A DNA stretch of 64,000 bases from Escherichia phage vB_EcoM_Lutter. Both the position numbers and the translations under genes were made by a program. Where the stretch lies: the sequence record NC_054924.1; one strand, written 5' to 3'. A model generated the notes under the pieces. That model was not told the origin of the DNA and ran no database searches. It saw only the letters and a program-made list of their open reading frames with translations. Positions 4,036-39,092 of this stretch are shown here, piece after piece; within the stretch, counting starts at the first letter, position 1; each line of letters begins with the position of its first letter.

Positions 4036-5166
4036 TTATGGATAGGTATAGATGATACCAGTTTCTAAAGCAGTTTTATGAATGATGTATCCATTACGTG
4101 ATTCTTGAACATCAACTTCTGGATAGTCTTTCATCATCTTCTGAAGGGTGTAACGATGCAGGTAGTATTTACTATCTGGATCTTCAGTTTTCCAATCTTT
4201 ACCTTCTTCGGTCATTTTTTGGATTTCATCCATAACCCACCAACCGCACCAGATGTAAGCTGAAGTACGATGTGGAAGAGGATGAACATAAGGTAATTCA
4301 CCTTCTGGTTCCGGAGCAACTTTATCAGTTACCTGAACTTGACCTTCTGCTGTAATAGTTTTGCTATCGTAATCAGTTGCAGTAATAGTTGCAGTAACTT
4401 CAATAGTTTGACTTCCAATAGATGATGTATCAACAGTGTATACATTAGTTGACCCTTCTACTGGAGAAGAATCTTTCTTCCATGAATATTCGATTTGTGC
4501 TTCTTCTGGAGCATCCGTAACATTAGCAGTAAATGTAGCCGAAGCATCTTGCTGAACGTTAATAGAAGGAGGAGTCAATGTAACCCGTGGATTCATTGTT
4601 TTCTTATTAACAGTCAATGATACTTCATTAGAAGTAACTTCCTTTTCATTGTAATTTTCTGCAGTTACTTGCGCTACACACTTAACTGTTTTAGCTCCAA
4701 CTGTGGTAGGAGTATAGTTAAATGTAGTAGTAGTTTCTCCATCGACCAGAGAACCGTCAACATACCACTGATACGTAGCAGATGCTCCTAGCGGCTGCGA
4801 AGCTAAGGCAGCAGTAAATTGAACTGGGGTTCCAATTACTCCTGCTGGAGGACTATCAGGAGTTACTGCCAACGTAGTTGACTGAGTTTTATTTTTAACC
4901 GTGATAGTCGTAGTAATTTCTGCTGTTTCGGGACTACTATCGGCAACTTGATTTGTTGCAACAACTTTAATTGTTTTTGTTCCAGCAGGTCCTTTTAATA
5001 CATAATTAAAAGTTGCTTCAGCTCCATCTTGTGGAACATCATCTACGCTCCAAGCATATGTAATAGGTCCATCTCCAGTTTGACCACTGGGTGTAGCAGT
5101 AAACTGCTGAGTCTGATCTATAACTCCAGTAGGTGTTTTAGGAGTTATATCAACTGTAAAAGTCAT
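4036..5166 (-). CDS. hoc: Highly immunogenic outer capsid protein Hoc (tandem Ig-like domains)
   Basis: 376 aa; three repeated ~90-aa beta-rich modules with recurring Y-x-W-x-V-D motifs (ITYAWSVDD, ATYQWYVDG, IEYSWKKDS) plus a C-terminal Trp-rich domain. Confidence 0.85.
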   Translation of the reverse strand: MTFTVDITPKTPTGVIDQTQQFTATPSGQTGDGPITYAWSVDDVPQDGAEATFNYVLKGPAGTKTIKVVATNQVADSSPETAEITTTITVKNKTQSTTLAVTPDSPPAGVIGTPVQFTAALASQPLGASATYQWYVDGSLVDGETTTTFNYTPTTVGAKTVKCVAQVTAENYNEKEVTSNEVSLTVNKKTMNPRVTLTPPSINVQQDASATFTANVTDAPEEAQIEYSWKKDSSPVEGSTNVYTVDTSSIGSQTIEVTATITATDYDSKTITAEGQVQVTDKVAPEPEGELPYVHPLPHRTSAYIWCGWWVMDEIQKMTEEGKDWKTEDPDSKYYLHRYTLQKMMKDYPEVDVQESRNGYIIHKTALETGIIYTYP

Positions 5167-5175
5167 AAGTTATCC

Positions 5176-5856
5176 TTATTTTAATGTTACGAAAGAAGAA
5201 TTGCGTGTTTCACGAATTAAAACTGATCCGTCACGGTTAATGTAATAAATTAAGCTAAATAAAGTTTGGTGTGCTGACGCATGCTCAAAACTTGTTGGGT
5301 GAGATTTCCAATCCGGAGTTTCAGCTATCCATTGATAAATCCACCAAGGAACAGTGCAGAATCCTGGATTTTTTCCAATCAGCTGAAGATTCGGACTAAA
5401 GTTTTCCGGAAGAGTAAATACAGACGGCTTTTCAGATTCAATAATCTCAGCTACAGCCTGCTCGAATTTTTCTTCAACAAAAGGAGTATCTTCAATCAAA
5501 ACATCGGTATTTTCAGGAATTTTATCCGTTTCTACTACTTCAATTTTAATGTCAGATTTAACCGGAGAATCAATCAGAAGTGCTGCTTCTGGATTGACTT
5601 CTTCATCGTCATATTTTAACCCCTCTGCAGCATCAGCAGCATCAATTAAGTCTTTAATAGATAACCCATCAGTCTCTGGCATAGGTTCACTAGCGAGCTT
5701 CTGGAGGGCTTCTTCAATATCAACAACGATATTATCAAAAGATTTATTCTTTTTGACTTTTATACCAAACTGTTCAGCATATTCAGCTAATTTAGCTTTA
5801 GCTTCTTTATTATCATCAAGAGCCTTCAGCTCTGCAATATAATCTTTATCTATCAT
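5176..5856 (-). CDS. inh: Inh, inhibitor of prohead protease (acidic head protein)
   Basis: 226 aa acidic ORF immediately upstream of hoc, matching T4 order. Confidence 0.7.
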   Translation of the reverse strand: MIDKDYIAELKALDDNKEAKAKLAEYAEQFGIKVKKNKSFDNIVVDIEEALQKLASEPMPETDGLSIKDLIDAADAAEGLKYDDEEVNPEAALLIDSPVKSDIKIEVVETDKIPENTDVLIEDTPFVEEKFEQAVAEIIESEKPSVFTLPENFSPNLQLIGKNPGFCTVPWWIYQWIAETPDWKSHPTSFEHASAHQTLFSLIYYINRDGSVLIRETRNSSFVTLK

Positions 5857-8150: not shown

Positions 8151-8563
8151 TATTTTCCAGCCTCAAATGCTCGCATGTCTTGAATATGCTTAATAGCAAA
8201 TCCGCGTGATTTAATAGCATCAAGAGCTCCGCTACAGAAATCCAATAAAATTCCCCAATATTGCAATGAAGTATCAACCTTTAAAACATCCTTATCAGCT
8301 GATAGAACTGTCTTCATTTCTGATTTCTCGTAACGATCCATACTAAATTCATCACCATCTCCTCGTCCCGAGTAGTAGTCTAATCTAGCTTTAAGAGCAA
8401 CTTTTTTCTGTGCGTCAATTCTAAGCATTTCCTTTTTAATACTTGAATGCTTATTAAGCCATTTACTATATAACATCACATTATTAGCTGCTTCATACTG
8501 TAATTTAGTCGAATCTATAAACACATCTTTCTTCAATTCTTCTTGAAGATCTTCTAATCTCAT
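8150..8563 (-). CDS. uvsY: UvsY recombination mediator
   Basis: 137 aa; N-terminus MRLEDLQEELKKDVFIDSTKLQYEAANN. Confidence 0.9.
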   Translation of the reverse strand: MRLEDLQEELKKDVFIDSTKLQYEAANNVMLYSKWLNKHSSIKKEMLRIDAQKKVALKARLDYYSGRGDGDEFSMDRYEKSEMKTVLSADKDVLKVDTSLQYWGILLDFCSGALDAIKSRGFAIKHIQDMRAFEAGK

Positions 8564-8629
8564 ATTGTTCTCTATTCAATTGTTATTGGATGGACTTAGA
8601 TTCATTATACCACGTTTTAACGTGAAGCA

Positions 8630-9028
8630 TTATACCCTATTACTCGAAGCCAGTTGCAGTTTTATCTGCTCAATATCATCAGGGTTATCGATGACCGAAA
8701 AGCGTATTTCTACTATCAGAGTATAATCATCATAAACTGGTATCACATTAACTGATAATTTATCAATACGTGGCTCATAGTTTCTTACTGCGCTTTCAAT
8801 ATTGCGCTCAACTGTGTCAGCAGTAAGAGGAGTCATATTTTCAAAAAGCTGGTCTGATAAATCACATCCAAATTCAGGGTCAAACGGTCTTGAACCTTTT
8901 CTTGTTGTAATAATTCCCAAAAGACTGTTTTTAATTGACCTTAATCCAAGTGATCTGGAAACATCTTTGTTCCAATCCATTTTCATTTCCGGGTCAATAT
9001 CAGAATAAAGCTTATTAATATTTGCCAT
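8630..9028 (-). CDS. 25: Baseplate wedge protein gp25
   Basis: 132 aa; synteny with 26/51. Confidence 0.85.
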   Translation of the reverse strand: MANINKLYSDIDPEMKMDWNKDVSRSLGLRSIKNSLLGIITTRKGSRPFDPEFGCDLSDQLFENMTPLTADTVERNIESAVRNYEPRIDKLSVNVIPVYDDYTLIVEIRFSVIDNPDDIEQIKLQLASSNRV

Positions 9029-11629: not shown

Positions 11630-12107
11630 AGAAGTTTCTATTCCTAAAATGGGTCTTAAACATTATAACATTTTAAAGGATGTTAAAGGTCCTGATGAAA
11701 ATTTAAAACTTCTTATTGATTCTATTTGTCCGAATTTATCACCGGCAGAAGTTGATTTCGTTTCTATTCATTTATTGGAATTTAATGGAAAGATTAAATC
11801 TCGTAAAGAAATAGATGGCTATACTTATGACATTAATGATGTCTATGTATGCCAAAGATTAGAATTTCAATACCAAGGAAATACATTTTATTTTAGACCT
11901 CCTGGAAAATTTGAACAATTTTTAACGGTGAGCGATATGTTATCTAAATGCTTGCTTAAGGTCAATGATGAAGTTAAAGAAATTAATTTTCTTGAGATGC
12001 CAGCATTCGTTTTAAAATGGGCAAATGATATTTTTACAACTTTAGCAATTCCTGGCCCTAATGGTCCAATAACTGGAATTGGCAATATTATTGGATTATT
12101 TGAATGA
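11574..12107 (+). CDS. 28: Baseplate hub distal protein gp28
   Basis: 177 aa; start overlaps the 3' end of gene 27 by 56 nt. Confidence 0.8.
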
Positions 12108-30604: not shown

Positions 30605-32192
<1,588 letters not shown>

Positions 32193-32197
32193 AATAA

Positions 32198-32219
32198 AAT
32201 GGGCCTTGCGGCCCACTCC
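32198..32219 (-). terminator. Hairpin between nrdB and denA
   Basis: gggccttgcggccc hairpin followed on the minus strand by ATTTTATT. Confidence 0.45.
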
Positions 32220-33389
32220 TTAAAAATATTTTTTAAAACTCATCATAACTTTATCATCAACATCATTATCAATCTGTGCTACAAGGTAAGATGACAGTTC
32301 TACTTCTTGCGGCGCGGATTGAACATTATCAGAATTAAGGTATTCACGAATCCAAGGATATGGATGTTTAACCGGAGCATCGGTAATTGGGCATGGAAGA
32401 CCGCACTGTTTCATACGAGATACAGTTAAGTAATCAATAAAGCTCCACATGCTATTTGTATTTAATCCAGGAACATCACCATCTTTAAATAAATGAACTG
32501 CCCAATCTTTTTCTTGGCGGTTAACTTCCATGAAAATATCAACTGCTTCTTGTTCACACTCTTGAGCAATTTTAACCCATTCATCGCCATCAGTGCCAAG
32601 TTGAAGTTGACGAATAATATATTGAGTGCCTTTAAGGTGAAGCTGCTCATCACGTGCAATGAACTTCATAATCTTGGCATTACCTTCCATGATTTCCATA
32701 TTCTTGTGGAAGTTAAAGGTACATGCGAAAGATACATAAAAACGAATAGCTTCTAAGGCATTAATAACGTGCAAACAGAGGTAAAGAGATTTCATTAGCT
32801 CTCGTTTGGCGTATTCAACGACTTTACCAAGTTCATCTTTGCGCCAACCTTCAGACAAAATTCCTTCGTATTCTTCTTTAGCGTTTTCCCATTCACGGGT
32901 TTTAACCAAGACATCATCGTAATATCGCCCAATGGACTCAGCACGTTTCATAATAGCTTCATCTAATACAATCTCATCAAACACCTTCGATGGATCAGTA
33001 TAAAGATTTCGCATGATATGTGTATATGAACGGCTGTGAATAGTTTCACTAAAAGTCCACGTAGCAACCCATGTATCAAGGCTTGGGTCTGAAATTAATG
33101 ACATAAGTACAGCAGATGGCGCGCGACCCTGAATGCTATCCAAAAGTGATTGATACTTCAGGTTATTAGTAAAAATATTCTGTTGATACTGAGGAAGTTT
33201 ATTAAATTGTGCAGCATCCATCATCAAGTTTACTTCTTCAGGACGCCAGAAAAATGATAAAGATTTCTCAATAAGTTCTTCAAATACTCTATGCCGTTGA
33301 ATATCATATCGAGCTAAACCCAATCCAGAACCAAAAAACATCGGCTCAGTCAAAATATTAACAGGGGATGTATTAAAAACTGTACTCAT
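32220..33389 (-). CDS. nrdB: Ribonucleotide reductase small subunit (aerobic), uninterrupted
   Basis: 389 aa continuous ORF with no intron. Confidence 0.9.
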   Translation of the reverse strand: MSTVFNTSPVNILTEPMFFGSGLGLARYDIQRHRVFEELIEKSLSFFWRPEEVNLMMDAAQFNKLPQYQQNIFTNNLKYQSLLDSIQGRAPSAVLMSLISDPSLDTWVATWTFSETIHSRSYTHIMRNLYTDPSKVFDEIVLDEAIMKRAESIGRYYDDVLVKTREWENAKEEYEGILSEGWRKDELGKVVEYAKRELMKSLYLCLHVINALEAIRFYVSFACTFNFHKNMEIMEGNAKIMKFIARDEQLHLKGTQYIIRQLQLGTDGDEWVKIAQECEQEAVDIFMEVNRQEKDWAVHLFKDGDVPGLNTNSMWSFIDYLTVSRMKQCGLPCPITDAPVKHPYPWIREYLNSDNVQSAPQEVELSSYLVAQIDNDVDDKVMMSFKKYF

Positions 33390-34027
33390 TTAGAATCCTT
33401 AAATTTACATTTATCATAATGCCATCTTAGAGCATTGCCTTTATTAACCTTCTTGCCACAATGCGGACAAGGCGGATACTCTATACTTTGCTTAGTTCTC
33501 AAAGAAATCAAATCACGAGTTTCTTTAGTATGAGGAACATCTCTTGTTGGAGAGATTGTACCATACATCGGATTAAGCACGCCGACTTTAGCAGCAGCTA
33601 TATTCTTTTTAGCTTCTTCGGTTTTAGGTTTTCTCATGCGAGCTAAATGCTCTTTGGTAAATTTCCTTCCTTTAAGAGCTCTACTTATCTTTTCCCTGGT
33701 TTCTATAGAAACTTCACGTCCTATAGCAGCTTCAGATAAACGTCGTCTACCTAATTCGTATAGTTGAGAAGAAATTTTATATGAGCGATTTTTACCAGTC
33801 AAGCACATTAAACCAAAAGCTTTCTTTAATCCTGGGGTGTCATATATTTTGCATAAAAGCCAATGAGCTATAAAATGCTCTCTACCTGTTAATTCAACTA
33901 AATTTTCTTTATCATCAGAACCTCCCATACATCTAGGGATTATATGATGAGTCTCTTTATATTCAGATAAAGGTTCCCGAGCCTGAGCTCGGGAAATTAG
34001 GTCATTATAGATTTTTTGATAATTCAT
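33386..34027 (-). CDS. mobE: HNH homing endonuclease MobE
   Basis: 213 aa; HNH-type His and Cys pairs (HHIIPRCMGG...H) and a C-terminal zinc-ribbon-like CPHCGK; sits between nrdA and nrdB. Confidence 0.85.
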   Translation of the reverse strand: MNYQKIYNDLISRAQAREPLSEYKETHHIIPRCMGGSDDKENLVELTGREHFIAHWLLCKIYDTPGLKKAFGLMCLTGKNRSYKISSQLYELGRRRLSEAAIGREVSIETREKISRALKGRKFTKEHLARMRKPKTEEAKKNIAAAKVGVLNPMYGTISPTRDVPHTKETRDLISLRTKQSIEYPPCPHCGKKVNKGNALRWHYDKCKFKDSK

Positions 34028-36562: not shown

Positions 36563-36826
36563 TTATTCACTACCCGACATAGACGGCCCGCGCGGTGATA
36601 ATTCGGCATATTGTTTTTCCGTTAATACAGTAATATCGTAGTAACAGTCAGAAGAAGTTTTAACTGTGGAAATTTTATTGTCAAAATATTCACGAGTCAT
36701 TGTATGAGTATAGTATTTTTTACCATAAATGATAATAGGCTGTTCTGGTCCTGGAACTTCTAACTCGCTTGGGTTAGGAAGTGTAAAAAGAACAACGCCA
36801 GAAGTATCTTTAAATCGTAAAATCAT
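36563..36826 (-). CDS. Hypothetical protein (nrdA.2-like)
   Basis: 87 aa ORF. Confidence 0.5.
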
Positions 36827-37134
36827 ATTGCCATTTTCCCTTTAATTGCTGGATGCGATTCATAATTTTCAAGGATAAAATCTTTCGGTTTCATGTATTC
36901 AGTTAACCAGTAAAGCTGTGTTTCGGTGTCACAATTTCCAAACTCTATAGGCCAATCAATTTTAAGTTCACACAGTTCTTTAGGCTCACGACGTAAAATT
37001 TCTTTACATTGCTCAGTATGATTCATATAGATGTGAGTATTACCACCAGAAAATATCAAATCTCCTGGGATAAGATTACACATCTTAGCCACAATATGTG
37101 TCAAGGCAGCGTACGAGGCAATGTTGAACGGTAG
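36823..37134 (-). CDS. td: Thymidylate synthase, exon 2
   Basis: 3' splice site after ...ACATAATG; exon 2 begins CTACCGTTCAAC ([11 protein letters not shown]...). Confidence 0.9.
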
Positions 37135-38150
37135 CATTATGTTCAGATAAGGTCGTTAATCTTACCCCGGAATTATATCCAGCTACATGTCACCATGCAG
37201 AGCAGACTATATCTCCAACTTGTTAAAGCAAGTTGTCTATCGTTTCGAGTCACTTGACCCTACTCCCCAAAGGGATAGTCGTTAGGCATTTATGTAGAAC
37301 CAATTCCATTTATCAGATTTTACACGATAAGTAACTAATCCAGACGAAATTTTAAAATGTCTAGCTGCATCTGCTGCACATTCAAAAATAACCCCATCAC
37401 ATGAAATCTTTTTAATATTACTAGGCTTTTTACCTTTCATCTTTTCTGATATTTTAGATTTAGTTATGTCTGAATGCTTATGATTAAAGAATGAATTATT
37501 TTCACCTGAACGATTTCTGCATTTACTACAAGTATAAGCAGAAGTTTGTATGCGAACACCGCACTTACAAAACTTATGGATTTCTGGATTCCAACGCCCA
37601 TTTTTACTTCCGGGTTTACTGTAAAGAGCTTTCCGACCATCAGGTCCAAGTTTAAGCATCTTAGCTTTAACAGTTTCAGAACGTTTCTTAATAATTTCTT
37701 CTTTTAATGGATGCGTAGAACATGTATCACCAAACGTTGCATCAGCAATATTGTATCCATTAATTTTAGAATTAAGCTCTTTAATCCAAAAATTTTCTCG
37801 TTCAATAATCAAATCTTTCTCATATGGAATTTCTTCCAAAATAGAACATTCAAACACATTACCATGTTTGTTAAAAGACCTCTGAAGTTTTATAGAAGAA
37901 TGGCATCCTTTTTCTAAATCTTTAAAATGCCTCTTCCATCTCTTTTCAAAATCTTTAGCACTTCCTACATATACTTTATTGTTTAAAGTATTTTTAATCT
38001 GATAAATTCCGCTTTTCATAAATACCTCTTTGAATATAGAAGTATTTATTAAAGGGCAGTCCTACAATTTAGCACGGGATTGTCTACTAGAGAGTTTCCC
38101 CGTTTAGATAGATTACAAGTATAAGTCACCTTATACTCAGGCCTCAATTA
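37135..38150 (-). mobile_element. Group I self-splicing intron in td (1016 nt) carrying the I-TevI gene
   Basis: Intron 5' end TAATTGAGGCCTGAGTATAAGGTGACTTATACTTG and 3' end ...CATAATG match the td intron as I recall it; splicing the exons restores a 286-aa thymidylate synthase. Confidence 0.9.
37282..38019 (-). CDS. I-TevI: GIY-YIG homing endonuclease I-TevI (intron-encoded)
   Basis: 245 aa; N-terminal GIY-YIG (GIYQIKNTLNNKVYVGSA); lies wholly within the td intron. Confidence 0.95.
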   Translation of the reverse strand: MKSGIYQIKNTLNNKVYVGSAKDFEKRWKRHFKDLEKGCHSSIKLQRSFNKHGNVFECSILEEIPYEKDLIIERENFWIKELNSKINGYNIADATFGDTCSTHPLKEEIIKKRSETVKAKMLKLGPDGRKALYSKPGSKNGRWNPEIHKFCKCGVRIQTSAYTCSKCRNRSGENNSFFNHKHSDITKSKISEKMKGKKPSNIKKISCDGVIFECAADAARHFKISSGLVTYRVKSDKWNWFYINA

Positions 38151-38699
38151 ACCCAAGAAAACATCTACCGAACGTTGATACCACTGCAAATCCAAATAAC
38201 CATTACGCACATTAAACTGATAGAACATATGACAGGGCGGTAATGCCATTTGATTGATTTCAGCTGGATTCCATGCTGAAACGATTTGACGTCGATCAGT
38301 TGGTAATTTTTTAATACGATCAATAGTTTCAACTAATTGATCCACACCACCGAAATCACGCCATTGTTTACCGTATATAGGACCAAGTTCACCACTATGA
38401 TATCCTAGGTCTTTAGCTTGGTTTTCATAATTGTCATCCCAGATAGTTTTACCTTGAATAAGACTACCGTGAGTAAGAAGACGTAAATCATTAACATTGG
38501 TAGAACCGGAAATAAACCATAGAAGCTCAGCAATGCATGCATTCCAGGCGAGCTTCTTAGTTGTTACTGCAGGAAAACCTTTAGTTAAATCCCATCGTAA
38601 TTTAGTACCGAACAAAGCAATTGTTCCTGTGCCCGTTCGGTCATCGGTTTCATAGCCATTTTCAAAAATGTCTTTAATTAAATCTTGGTATTGTTTCAT
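38151..38699 (-). CDS. td: Thymidylate synthase, exon 1
   Basis: 183 codons ending ...VDVFLG; the in-frame stop TAA is provided by the first intron nucleotides. Confidence 0.9.
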
Positions 38700-38744: not shown

Positions 38745-39092
38745 TCAATACGGTTTAGCATCAAATTTTCTCTCAATTTCAGGTGTGAAATATAATTCTT
38801 TACCGCGTTTGGAAAAGCGACCAATAATATGATAATTATTCTCATCAAACGTGATATTACCAATATCCATAGCTTTCAACCAAATATCGATATTTCTATC
38901 CAGCTTTATGTCAAAATTCCAATACGGAGAACTATTACCGAAAATACTACAAGCGGATTCAGTGAAACAGCTACTATAAATCTTGTCTTTAGGAACTACT
39001 AATTGATAGACACCTTTAATAAACTGAGGACCTTGCCATTTTGGCTGTTTCTCGTCTTTTTCTAATAGAATAGGGTAATAATTAAAATTCAT
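38745..39092 (-). CDS. Hypothetical 115-aa protein inserted between frd and td
   Basis: ORF with an ATG start in the frd-td spacer; no motif recognised. Confidence 0.5.
   Translation of the reverse strand: MNFNYYPILLEKDEKQPKWQGPQFIKGVYQLVVPKDKIYSSCFTESACSIFGNSSPYWNFDIKLDRNIDIWLKAMDIGNITFDENNYHIIGRFSKRGKELYFTPEIERKFDAKPY

Follow-up and report, generated by a model that had tools for sequence, protein, structure and literature searches.

A T4-type td group I intron carrying I-TevI, with boundaries defined to the nucleotide, in the thymidylate synthase gene of Escherichia phage vB_EcoM_Lutter

The window, i.e. the whole stretch of DNA that was analysed, comprises 64,000 nucleotides of Escherichia phage vB_EcoM_Lutter (NC_054924.1). 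The thymidylate synthase gene td and the features described below lie on its minus strand. Reading of the sequence and its open reading frames showed td to be split into exon 1 (38699..38151), an insert of 1016 nt (38150..37135) and exon 2 (37134..36823). Exon 1 (549 nt, 183 codons) has the 3′ end ...TTCTTGGGT, its final bases being GGGT, and the reading frame that opens at 38699 reaches ...GTTTTCTTGGGT at 38151. The insert begins with TAATTGAGGCCTGAG and ends with ...CTGAACATAATG at 37135. The td frame resumes with CTACCGTTCAAC at 37134, i.e. at the CTACCG end of exon 2, which is 312 nt long including the stop codon and terminates with that codon at 36823. The first three bases of the insert (38150..38148) are TAA and are in frame with exon 1; read-through of the unspliced gene gives ...DVFLG*, exon 1 alone ending at residue 183.

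Joining of the two exons yields a protein of 286 aa which reads ...RSVDVFLG|LPFNIASYA... over the junction. This product matches the Pfam family Thymidylat_synt (PF00303) over residues 2-286 with 320.8 bits, as a full-length thymidylate synthase does, and it aligned with the crystal structure of the T4 enzyme (PDB 1TIS) over residues 1-286, free of gaps at DVFLG|LPFNIASY. The complete domain with its active-site region would be restored only by splicing. Roughly 1200 td alleles were found, and many relatives carry td without interruption. The intron-less td of phage CHD94UKE2 is 96.2% (exon 1) and 98.1% (exon 2) identical to the window exons when aligned with MAFFT, and the two alleles are separated by one clean, intron-sized gap. 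The placement of this gap was 1 nt off, because the CHD94UKE2 allele, which reads GGGC|TTGCCA here, differs at the exon positions −1 and +1. A one-base displacement of the excised segment in either direction alters the spliced sequence (T versus G at one end, T versus C at the other), and the boundaries are therefore unique. The insertion point is fixed to the nucleotide by the intron-less allele. The boundary bases are the same as in T4, and the annotated two-piece td coding sequence of T4 has an exon total of 861 nt, as expected. The spliced junction is predicted to read ...TTCTTGGGT|CTACCGTTC..., i.e. GGGU|CUACCG in the RNA. An earlier, sequence-only reading of this DNA had proposed a td gene split into 38151..38699 and 36823..37134 by an intron of 1016 nt that starts with TAATTGAGGCCTGAG after ...GGGT, ends with ...CTGAACATAATG and supplies the in-frame TAA with its first bases. 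Its coordinates proved exact throughout, both intron ends agree with the sequence and with the CHD94UKE2 allele, and the end of unspliced exon-1 translation at the TAA is as had been stated.

The insert was found at full length in 196 phage records, in 149 of them at an identity of at least 99%; these matches, like that of the spliced thymidylate synthase, are far beyond chance. Compared with the td intron of T4 (M12742, the original T4 td record, and NC_000866), the identity is 99.3-99.4% over all 1016 nt. There are six substitutions and no insertions or deletions relative to M12742; the T4 reference genome has one extra T. The td introns of T4, T6, the RB phages and phage G2133 are 99.3-99.9% identical to the insert, and the features in T4, T6 and the RB phages are annotated as td and I-TevI. 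The closest intron is that of G2133 (99.9%), with a single base different at intron nt 571. The G2133 record carries the remark ‘unable to determine exon/intron boundaries’. The window itself is not T4, since over 16 kb the closest record is ~96% identical, the top matches all being Tequatrovirus. We conclude that the thymidylate synthase gene of this Tequatrovirus almost certainly contains the td group I intron of the T4 type, with I-TevI, an element already known and catalogued.

The intron occupies 37135..38150 (1016 nt), from the UAA in frame with exon 1 to a terminal G at 37135; a window position equals 38151 minus the intron nucleotide (nt) used in the following. In a direct pairing test with the window sequence, all twelve core helices (12/12) formed with 65 out of 65 base pairs. 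P1 (38137..38156) pairs exon positions −6 to −1 (UUGGGU) with nt 9-14 (GCCUGA, the internal guide sequence) at 6/6 pairs, including the U(−1)-G9 wobble at the 5′ splice site; a T at −1 is present in four of four intron-bearing alleles. It is followed by the P2 hairpin (nt 15-32; 38119..38136), in which nt 15-21 and 26-32 are fully paired (7/7) around a GUGA loop; relatives carry compensatory double changes at six of these seven pairs. The segment 38074..38112 contains the 5′ strand of P3 (39-44/910-915), J3/4, P4 (48-53/72-77), J4/5 and P5 (58-60/66-68), as indicated by pairing and covariation. The 5′ strands of P6 (78-79/864-865) and P6a (86-92/851-857) lie at 38059..38073 and pair in 9/9 positions with window 37286..37300. 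This brings in the 3′ half of the catalytic core (37183..37300), where P6a′, P6′, P7 (871-876/941-946), P7.1 (877-879/884-886), P7.2 (891-895/900-904), P3′, P8 (916-922/929-935) and P9 (951-957/962-968) were identified by their pairing and a local match to Rfam RF00028, with P7.1 and P7.2 co-varying. The 3′ periphery (37135..37182) is the same as in T4 and consists of the P9.1/P9.2 hairpins, which appear in minimum free energy folds, and the terminal G, the intron 3′ end being ...AUAAUG.

An ORF-deleted version of the intron (263 nt) folded at −75.8 kcal/mol (z = −3.3), a stability reached by none of 200 shuffles, and the fold recovered all helices outside the P3/P7 pseudoknot. When P10 pairing of exon 2 with the P1 loop was looked for, only two plausible base pairs were seen, G8-C+1 and A7-U+2, and no P10 is proposed. 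The heptamer GUUCUAC occurs twice in the intron, at nt 430 and nt 851. We take the T4 td intron to belong to subgroup IA2, and this label for the window intron would follow from its identity with T4 td, while class IA as such is supported by P7.1 and P7.2. These extra helices are the mark of class IA introns (PMC3984707), and both were found in the window between P7 and P3′.

The self-splicing of the T4 td intron is established (PMC2988022, PMC3984707), and at 99.4% identity with it, the window intron may be expected to undergo guanosine-dependent self-splicing as well. The transcript would fold into the group I core P1-P9 together with the class-IA extras P7.1 and P7.2. A guanosine bound in P7 would attack after U(−1), held in P1 by its pairing with G9, and the freed exon 1 would in turn attack after the terminal G (37135), joining ...GGU to CUA... 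and restoring the 286-aa thymidylate synthase. Ribosomes on unspliced RNA would halt at the UAA formed by the first three intron bases.

Support for the fold was also obtained from covariation. The alignment was small, comprising seven sequences, three of them near-identical, which had been found through the P7 motif, and the structure tested was that derived from the window's own sequence. Paired cells amounted to 93.2% in this seven-sequence alignment, as compared with 33-44% when the partners were slid by 1-3 columns. Double changes affecting both sides were present at 35 of the 65 pairs, and none of 500 shuffles matched the observed score. The double changes were located in P2, P3, P4, P7.1, P7.2, P8 and P9. 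Covariation is mute on P7, which is invariant because the relatives were retrieved via the P7 motif, and it is uninformative on P1 (66.7% paired), because the exon strand of this helix, misaligned by MAFFT, differs among host genes. A scan of IMG/VR with the 14-mer GGAGATATAGTCTG had returned 120 loci, only ~10 of which are group I introns; the other ~110 were rejected as chance matches within coding DNA. Five loci (L009a, L009b, L007, L083 and L013) were omitted from the alignment, since their larger P5 and P7.x insertions would misalign in MAFFT.

The Rfam model RF00028 gave no match in the window at its gathering score (50 bits). A permissive scan produced two pieces, one of 37.5 bits (E = 1.3e-7) in the 3′ core and one of 13.9 bits covering P3-P6; within the former, the 5′ portion is spuriously aligned inside the ORF. 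We attribute the shortfall to the ORF of 738 nt, which interrupts the core. The ORF-deleted intron of phage e11/2 was matched from end to end at 40 bits (E = 4e-8), still below 50, and ORF-less relatives sharing the core motif scored 69-89 bits, above the cut-off. The sequence-only reading had named the insert the td group I intron and had suggested folding it against the group I model. This assignment is borne out by the identity with T4, the 65 core pairs and the covariation, and the fold contains P1-P9 with the class-IA helices in place.

The I-TevI gene (37282..38019; 245 aa plus stop codon) is looped out of P6a. P6a and P6 have their 3′ strands within the final ~19 nt of the gene, whose stop codon lies at nt 867-869, between P6 and P7. 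Three Pfam domains were detected in the protein, namely GIY-YIG (PF01541; 66.8 bits, residues 3-90), I-TevI_ZnF (PF22635; 73.4 bits, residues 149-179), in which the four zinc-finger cysteines are present, and I-TevI_DNA-bd (PF20987; 111 bits, residues 192-242). Residues 1-97 match the structures of the I-TevI catalytic domain (PDB 1MK0 and 1LN0) save for engineered mutations (E75A in 1MK0), and the structure of the DNA-binding domain (PDB 1I3J; also 1T2T) aligns over residues 130-245 with two differences. The 245-aa GIY-YIG endonuclease that the sequence alone had suggested at this position is thus confirmed by its domains and by near-identity to the structures 1MK0, 1LN0 and 1I3J. Relative to T4, the window ORF carries two residue changes, T147I in that part of the linker which directly precedes the zinc finger and D213E in the DNA-binding domain, and one silent change. 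The linker comprises residues 96-169 (PMC5009752), and residue 147 is two residues N-terminal of the zinc-finger match. The codon for T147I was not found in any record of the phage DNA collection searched. The exact 245-aa protein is public as YP_010071982.1, the ‘homing endonuclease’ of vB_EcoM_Lutter.

For I-TevI, a CNNNG cleavage motif is expected 23/25 nt upstream of the insertion site (PMC2988022, PMC5009752). In the window, CAACG is present at 38173..38177 (exon positions −27 to −23), and it is also found in the intron-less CHD94UKE2. By analogy with T4, site-specific cleavage and homing by the window I-TevI appear likely.

In T4, an operator, a late promoter, an RBS hairpin, the cut site and the location of the ORF 3′ end in the core have been described (PMC2988022; PMC5009752), and all of these features are present in the window. 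A motif search upstream of the ORF identified a late-promoter-like AATAAATA at 38043..38050 (nt 101-108). It forms part of a segment (38043..38066) which includes a stretch identical to the T4 I-TevI operator and shows no substitution relative to T4. When the operator was compared with the window's own homing site, 12/20 positions agreed, which is not significant (reached by 151 out of 500 shuffles). The RBS hairpin (38018..38049) has a 12-bp stem in which the Shine-Dalgarno sequence of I-TevI is buried along with the AU of its start codon; with ΔG of −13 kcal/mol (z = −5.33) it was more stable than all of 200 shuffles. Expression of I-TevI would be late and low owing to an operator of its own that overlaps the late promoter and to a hairpin that hides the ribosome-binding site. 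In view of the identity with T4, autorepression and translational control of this kind can be presumed for the Lutter phage, and a regulatory function of these elements in the window is plausible on the same grounds.

The six substitutions relative to T4 are distributed over RNA and coding sequence. Three of them are outside the ORF, namely C (T4) to A at nt 56 (window 38095) in J4/5, T to C at nt 119 in the loop of the RBS hairpin, and C to T at nt 966 in P9, where a G-C pair becomes G-U. The other three are within the ORF, i.e. C to T at nt 551, which is silent (N140), C to T at nt 571 (T147I) and T to A at nt 770 (D213E). Related introns have A, C or T at nt 56, A being the commonest, and A56, C119 and U966 are common to the window and G2133. 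None of the helices or protein domains is broken by any of the six.

The exons surrounding the intron are mosaic. Informative sites were defined as positions at which the intron-less CHD94UKE2 and the intron-bearing G2133 differ. Up to td nt 513 (−37) the window agrees with CHD94UKE2; at −22, −19, −1, +1 and +3 it agrees with G2133, and from +66 it is CHD94UKE2-like again. The tract travelling with the intron therefore extends at minimum over 37132..38172 (exon −22 to +3 plus intron) and at maximum over 37070..38186 (exon −36 to +65 plus intron). The cut site of I-TevI (−23/−25) falls within the 5′ edge of the tract (−36 to −22). The flank of the junction is GGT|CTA in four of four intron-bearing alleles and GGN|TTG in four of four intron-less alleles, with the same amino acids encoded. 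Selection on splicing may help to keep the T at −1, since P1 also requires this base for its U-G pair. The intron is 99-100% conserved among phages whose exons differ by 15-30%. It is documented that td homing co-converts flanking exon sequence (PMC2988022); when the break is repaired, the intron would be copied in along with a few adjoining exon bases. The combination of a short tract spanning the cut site with mosaic exons fits homing by double-strand-break repair with limited co-conversion. Probably, then, the intron and ~25-100 bp of flanking exon were acquired by homing into a td gene 70-86% identical to that of T4.

Several other explanations were considered for the intron and its surroundings. 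That the true splice sites lie a few bases away, for instance at a cryptic 5′ or 3′ site, can practically be dismissed, since a shift of the excised segment by a single base already changes the spliced sequence, the FLGLPFN motif, uninterrupted as in 1TIS and the intron-less alleles, results only from the proposed junction, the proposed boundaries coincide with the U-G pair of P1 and the terminal G, and both the boundary bases and the 861-nt exon total are those of T4. One might also suppose that the intron is the td intron by descent but is decaying, with at least one of the six T4 differences (A56, the P9 G-U pair or T147I among them) impairing splicing or I-TevI, and with a compromised td being kept since the host supplies dTMP. 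As td is dispensable if the host supplies dTMP, selection on splicing may indeed be weak; degenerate copies do occur naturally, as in e11/2, which lacks 571 nt of I-TevI, and T147I is absent from all records of the phage DNA collection. We nevertheless regard decay as extremely unlikely. The core retains every one of its 65 pairs, the altered one in P9 included, nt 56 varies in relatives with A prevailing, nt 119 is in a hairpin loop, and A56, C119 and U966 recur in G2133, whose intron is one base (nt 571) away from that of the window. Moreover, the ORF is of full length with its three domains, residue 147 falls outside the zinc-finger match (149-179), and the D213E exchange is a conservative one.

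With respect to the history of the locus, the intron could have been inherited vertically, the exon mosaic being due to ordinary recombination of co-infecting T4-like phages, with breakpoints near the intron by chance and without homing by I-TevI. T4-like genomes are heavily mosaic, no record matching the window at more than ~96% over 16 kb, and small G2133-like patches occur in exon 1 far from the intron (td nt 149-153, 224-231, 264-282 and 351-354). However, ordinary recombination does not readily account for a 5′ switch that brackets the cut site or for the marked shortness of the tract on either side of the intron, which gap repair predicts. The near-invariance of the intron amid diverging exons, the correlation of intron presence with the silent GGT|CTA flank in all eight alleles examined, and the co-conversion documented for td (PMC2988022) argue in the same direction. 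We therefore rank this explanation as weaker than homing and consider it unlikely. A more far-reaching version of homing would see in this allele a snapshot of a recent event, with an unusually short tract (~25-100 bp) in a td gene 14-30% diverged from T4, and in addition an I-TevI whose T147I and D213E changes may be tuned to the target of its lineage. The lineage target does differ from that of T4 at +9 and +12, and related intron-less alleles, with a site of the RB18 type, have CAAAG as the cleavage motif. Nothing points to an altered cleavage distance or target preference of the variant with T147I, in the distance-setting linker, and D213E, and this version as a whole seems very unlikely to us.

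The main use of these results is the nucleotide-exact td join for annotation; otherwise they matter little. Automated annotation often yields two ‘thymidylate synthase’ ORFs or gives up, as in the G2133 record. Few mobile introns have been studied as thoroughly as the td intron with I-TevI; the window copy is six bases from that of T4, and its exact protein is public. The allele illustrates a near-invariant homing intron in a diverging host gene, with only a few flanking bases travelling along.

Comparison with known systems places the window intron closest to the td introns of other phages. The T4 td intron (M12742; NC_000866) has the same host gene, insertion point, helices and, in M12742, the same length of 1016 nt, and the operator, the late promoter and the stem of the RBS hairpin are sequence-identical; in contrast, the T4 exons are only 86.0% (exon 1) and 70.5% (exon 2) identical to those of the window. 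The td introns of phages vB_EcoM_G2133 and G2540 differ from the window intron in 1 out of 1016 nt (nt 571). The final 36 nt of exon 1 are also the same in these phages, the unusual T at −22 and the G at −19 among them, whereas the remaining exon 1 is only ~85% identical, i.e. the same intron haplotype resides in another td background. Phage e11/2 (KJ668714) carries a degenerate td intron with the same insertion site and core, in exons 95-99.7% identical to those of the window. It is only 445 nt long, since a deletion of 571 nt has removed I-TevI, and it shows a compensatory swap from A-U to U-A in P8. More distant are ORF-less introns of the td type in uncultured viral contigs (L057, L065 and L080), of which L057 and L065 score 72-86 bits with Rfam RF00028, above its cut-off. 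They have the same helix order, P7.1 and P7.2 included, and the same J8/7-P7 motif, and P7.2 of L057 and L080 is near-identical to that of the window. Unlike the window intron, they are located in other host genes, most of their helices differ in sequence with compensating changes, and P6a is without an ORF, L080 having instead a GIY-YIG ORF 5′ of the core.

The td intron of phage e11/2 (KJ668714; L005, 952..1396) is only 445 nt long. Relative to the td intron of the window, its I-TevI has been gutted by a 571-nt deletion, with the ribozyme core still intact, and P8 carries a compensatory swap of an A-U pair to U-A. In terms of the homing cycle, this intron appears to be at the stage of 'endonuclease decay'. 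In the intron-less td alleles of phages AndreasVesalius, phiD1 and RB18 (L126, L127 and L128, respectively), the I-TevI cleavage motif is CAAAG instead of the CAACG of the window, and four further changes follow immediately 3' of it (td −24 to −18, exon 1 bases upstream of the intron insertion point). CAAAG and the neighbouring changes could be a drift of the I-TevI target site that reduces cleavage.

A td-type core, approximately 91% identical to that of the window over P3-P6, was found on the viral contig IMGVR_UViG_3300043411_000482 (about 8560..8830). Its host gene differs from that of the window intron, and a GIY-YIG ORF lies immediately 5' of the core, whereas the endonuclease ORF of the window is placed inside P6a. 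On another viral contig (L009), two separate group I introns passing Rfam (5073..5389, 88.9 bits; 5486..5822, 72.6 bits) are spaced by only 97 nt. A third (L095) combines a tmRNA gene (11670..12005; 74.7 bits) with a td-type intron whose P6 holds a large ORF.

The 90%-identity cluster of the window I-TevI protein (37285..38019) includes several PDB chains of I-CreI (2VBL, 3MXB, 1T9J). I-CreI is a LAGLIDADG enzyme unrelated to I-TevI, and the presence of these chains looks like a clustering artefact of the protein collection.

Beyond the td intron, a motif search returned no further group I core motif in the 64-kb window. T4 nrdB contains a group I intron (I-TevIII); in contrast, nrdB of the window phage (32220..33389, minus strand) is one unbroken ORF of 389 aa and therefore lacks this intron. 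Between nrdA and nrdB lies a 213-aa HNH + NUMOD3 ORF (33386..34027, minus strand; phrog_655, 'homing endonuclease'), in the slot where T4 has its free-standing mobE and phage U5 has hef (PMC2988022). A 144-aa GIY-YIG protein (31782..32216, minus strand; phrog_1111, 'endonuclease') is encoded next to nrdB, where T4 has denA. The interval between frd and td holds a 115-aa ORF of unknown function (38745..39092, minus strand; phrog_1928) for which no Pfam match was obtained. While frd and td overlap in T4 with no gene between them, the same additional ORF is present in CHD94UKE2, a phage with an intron-less td close to that of the window.
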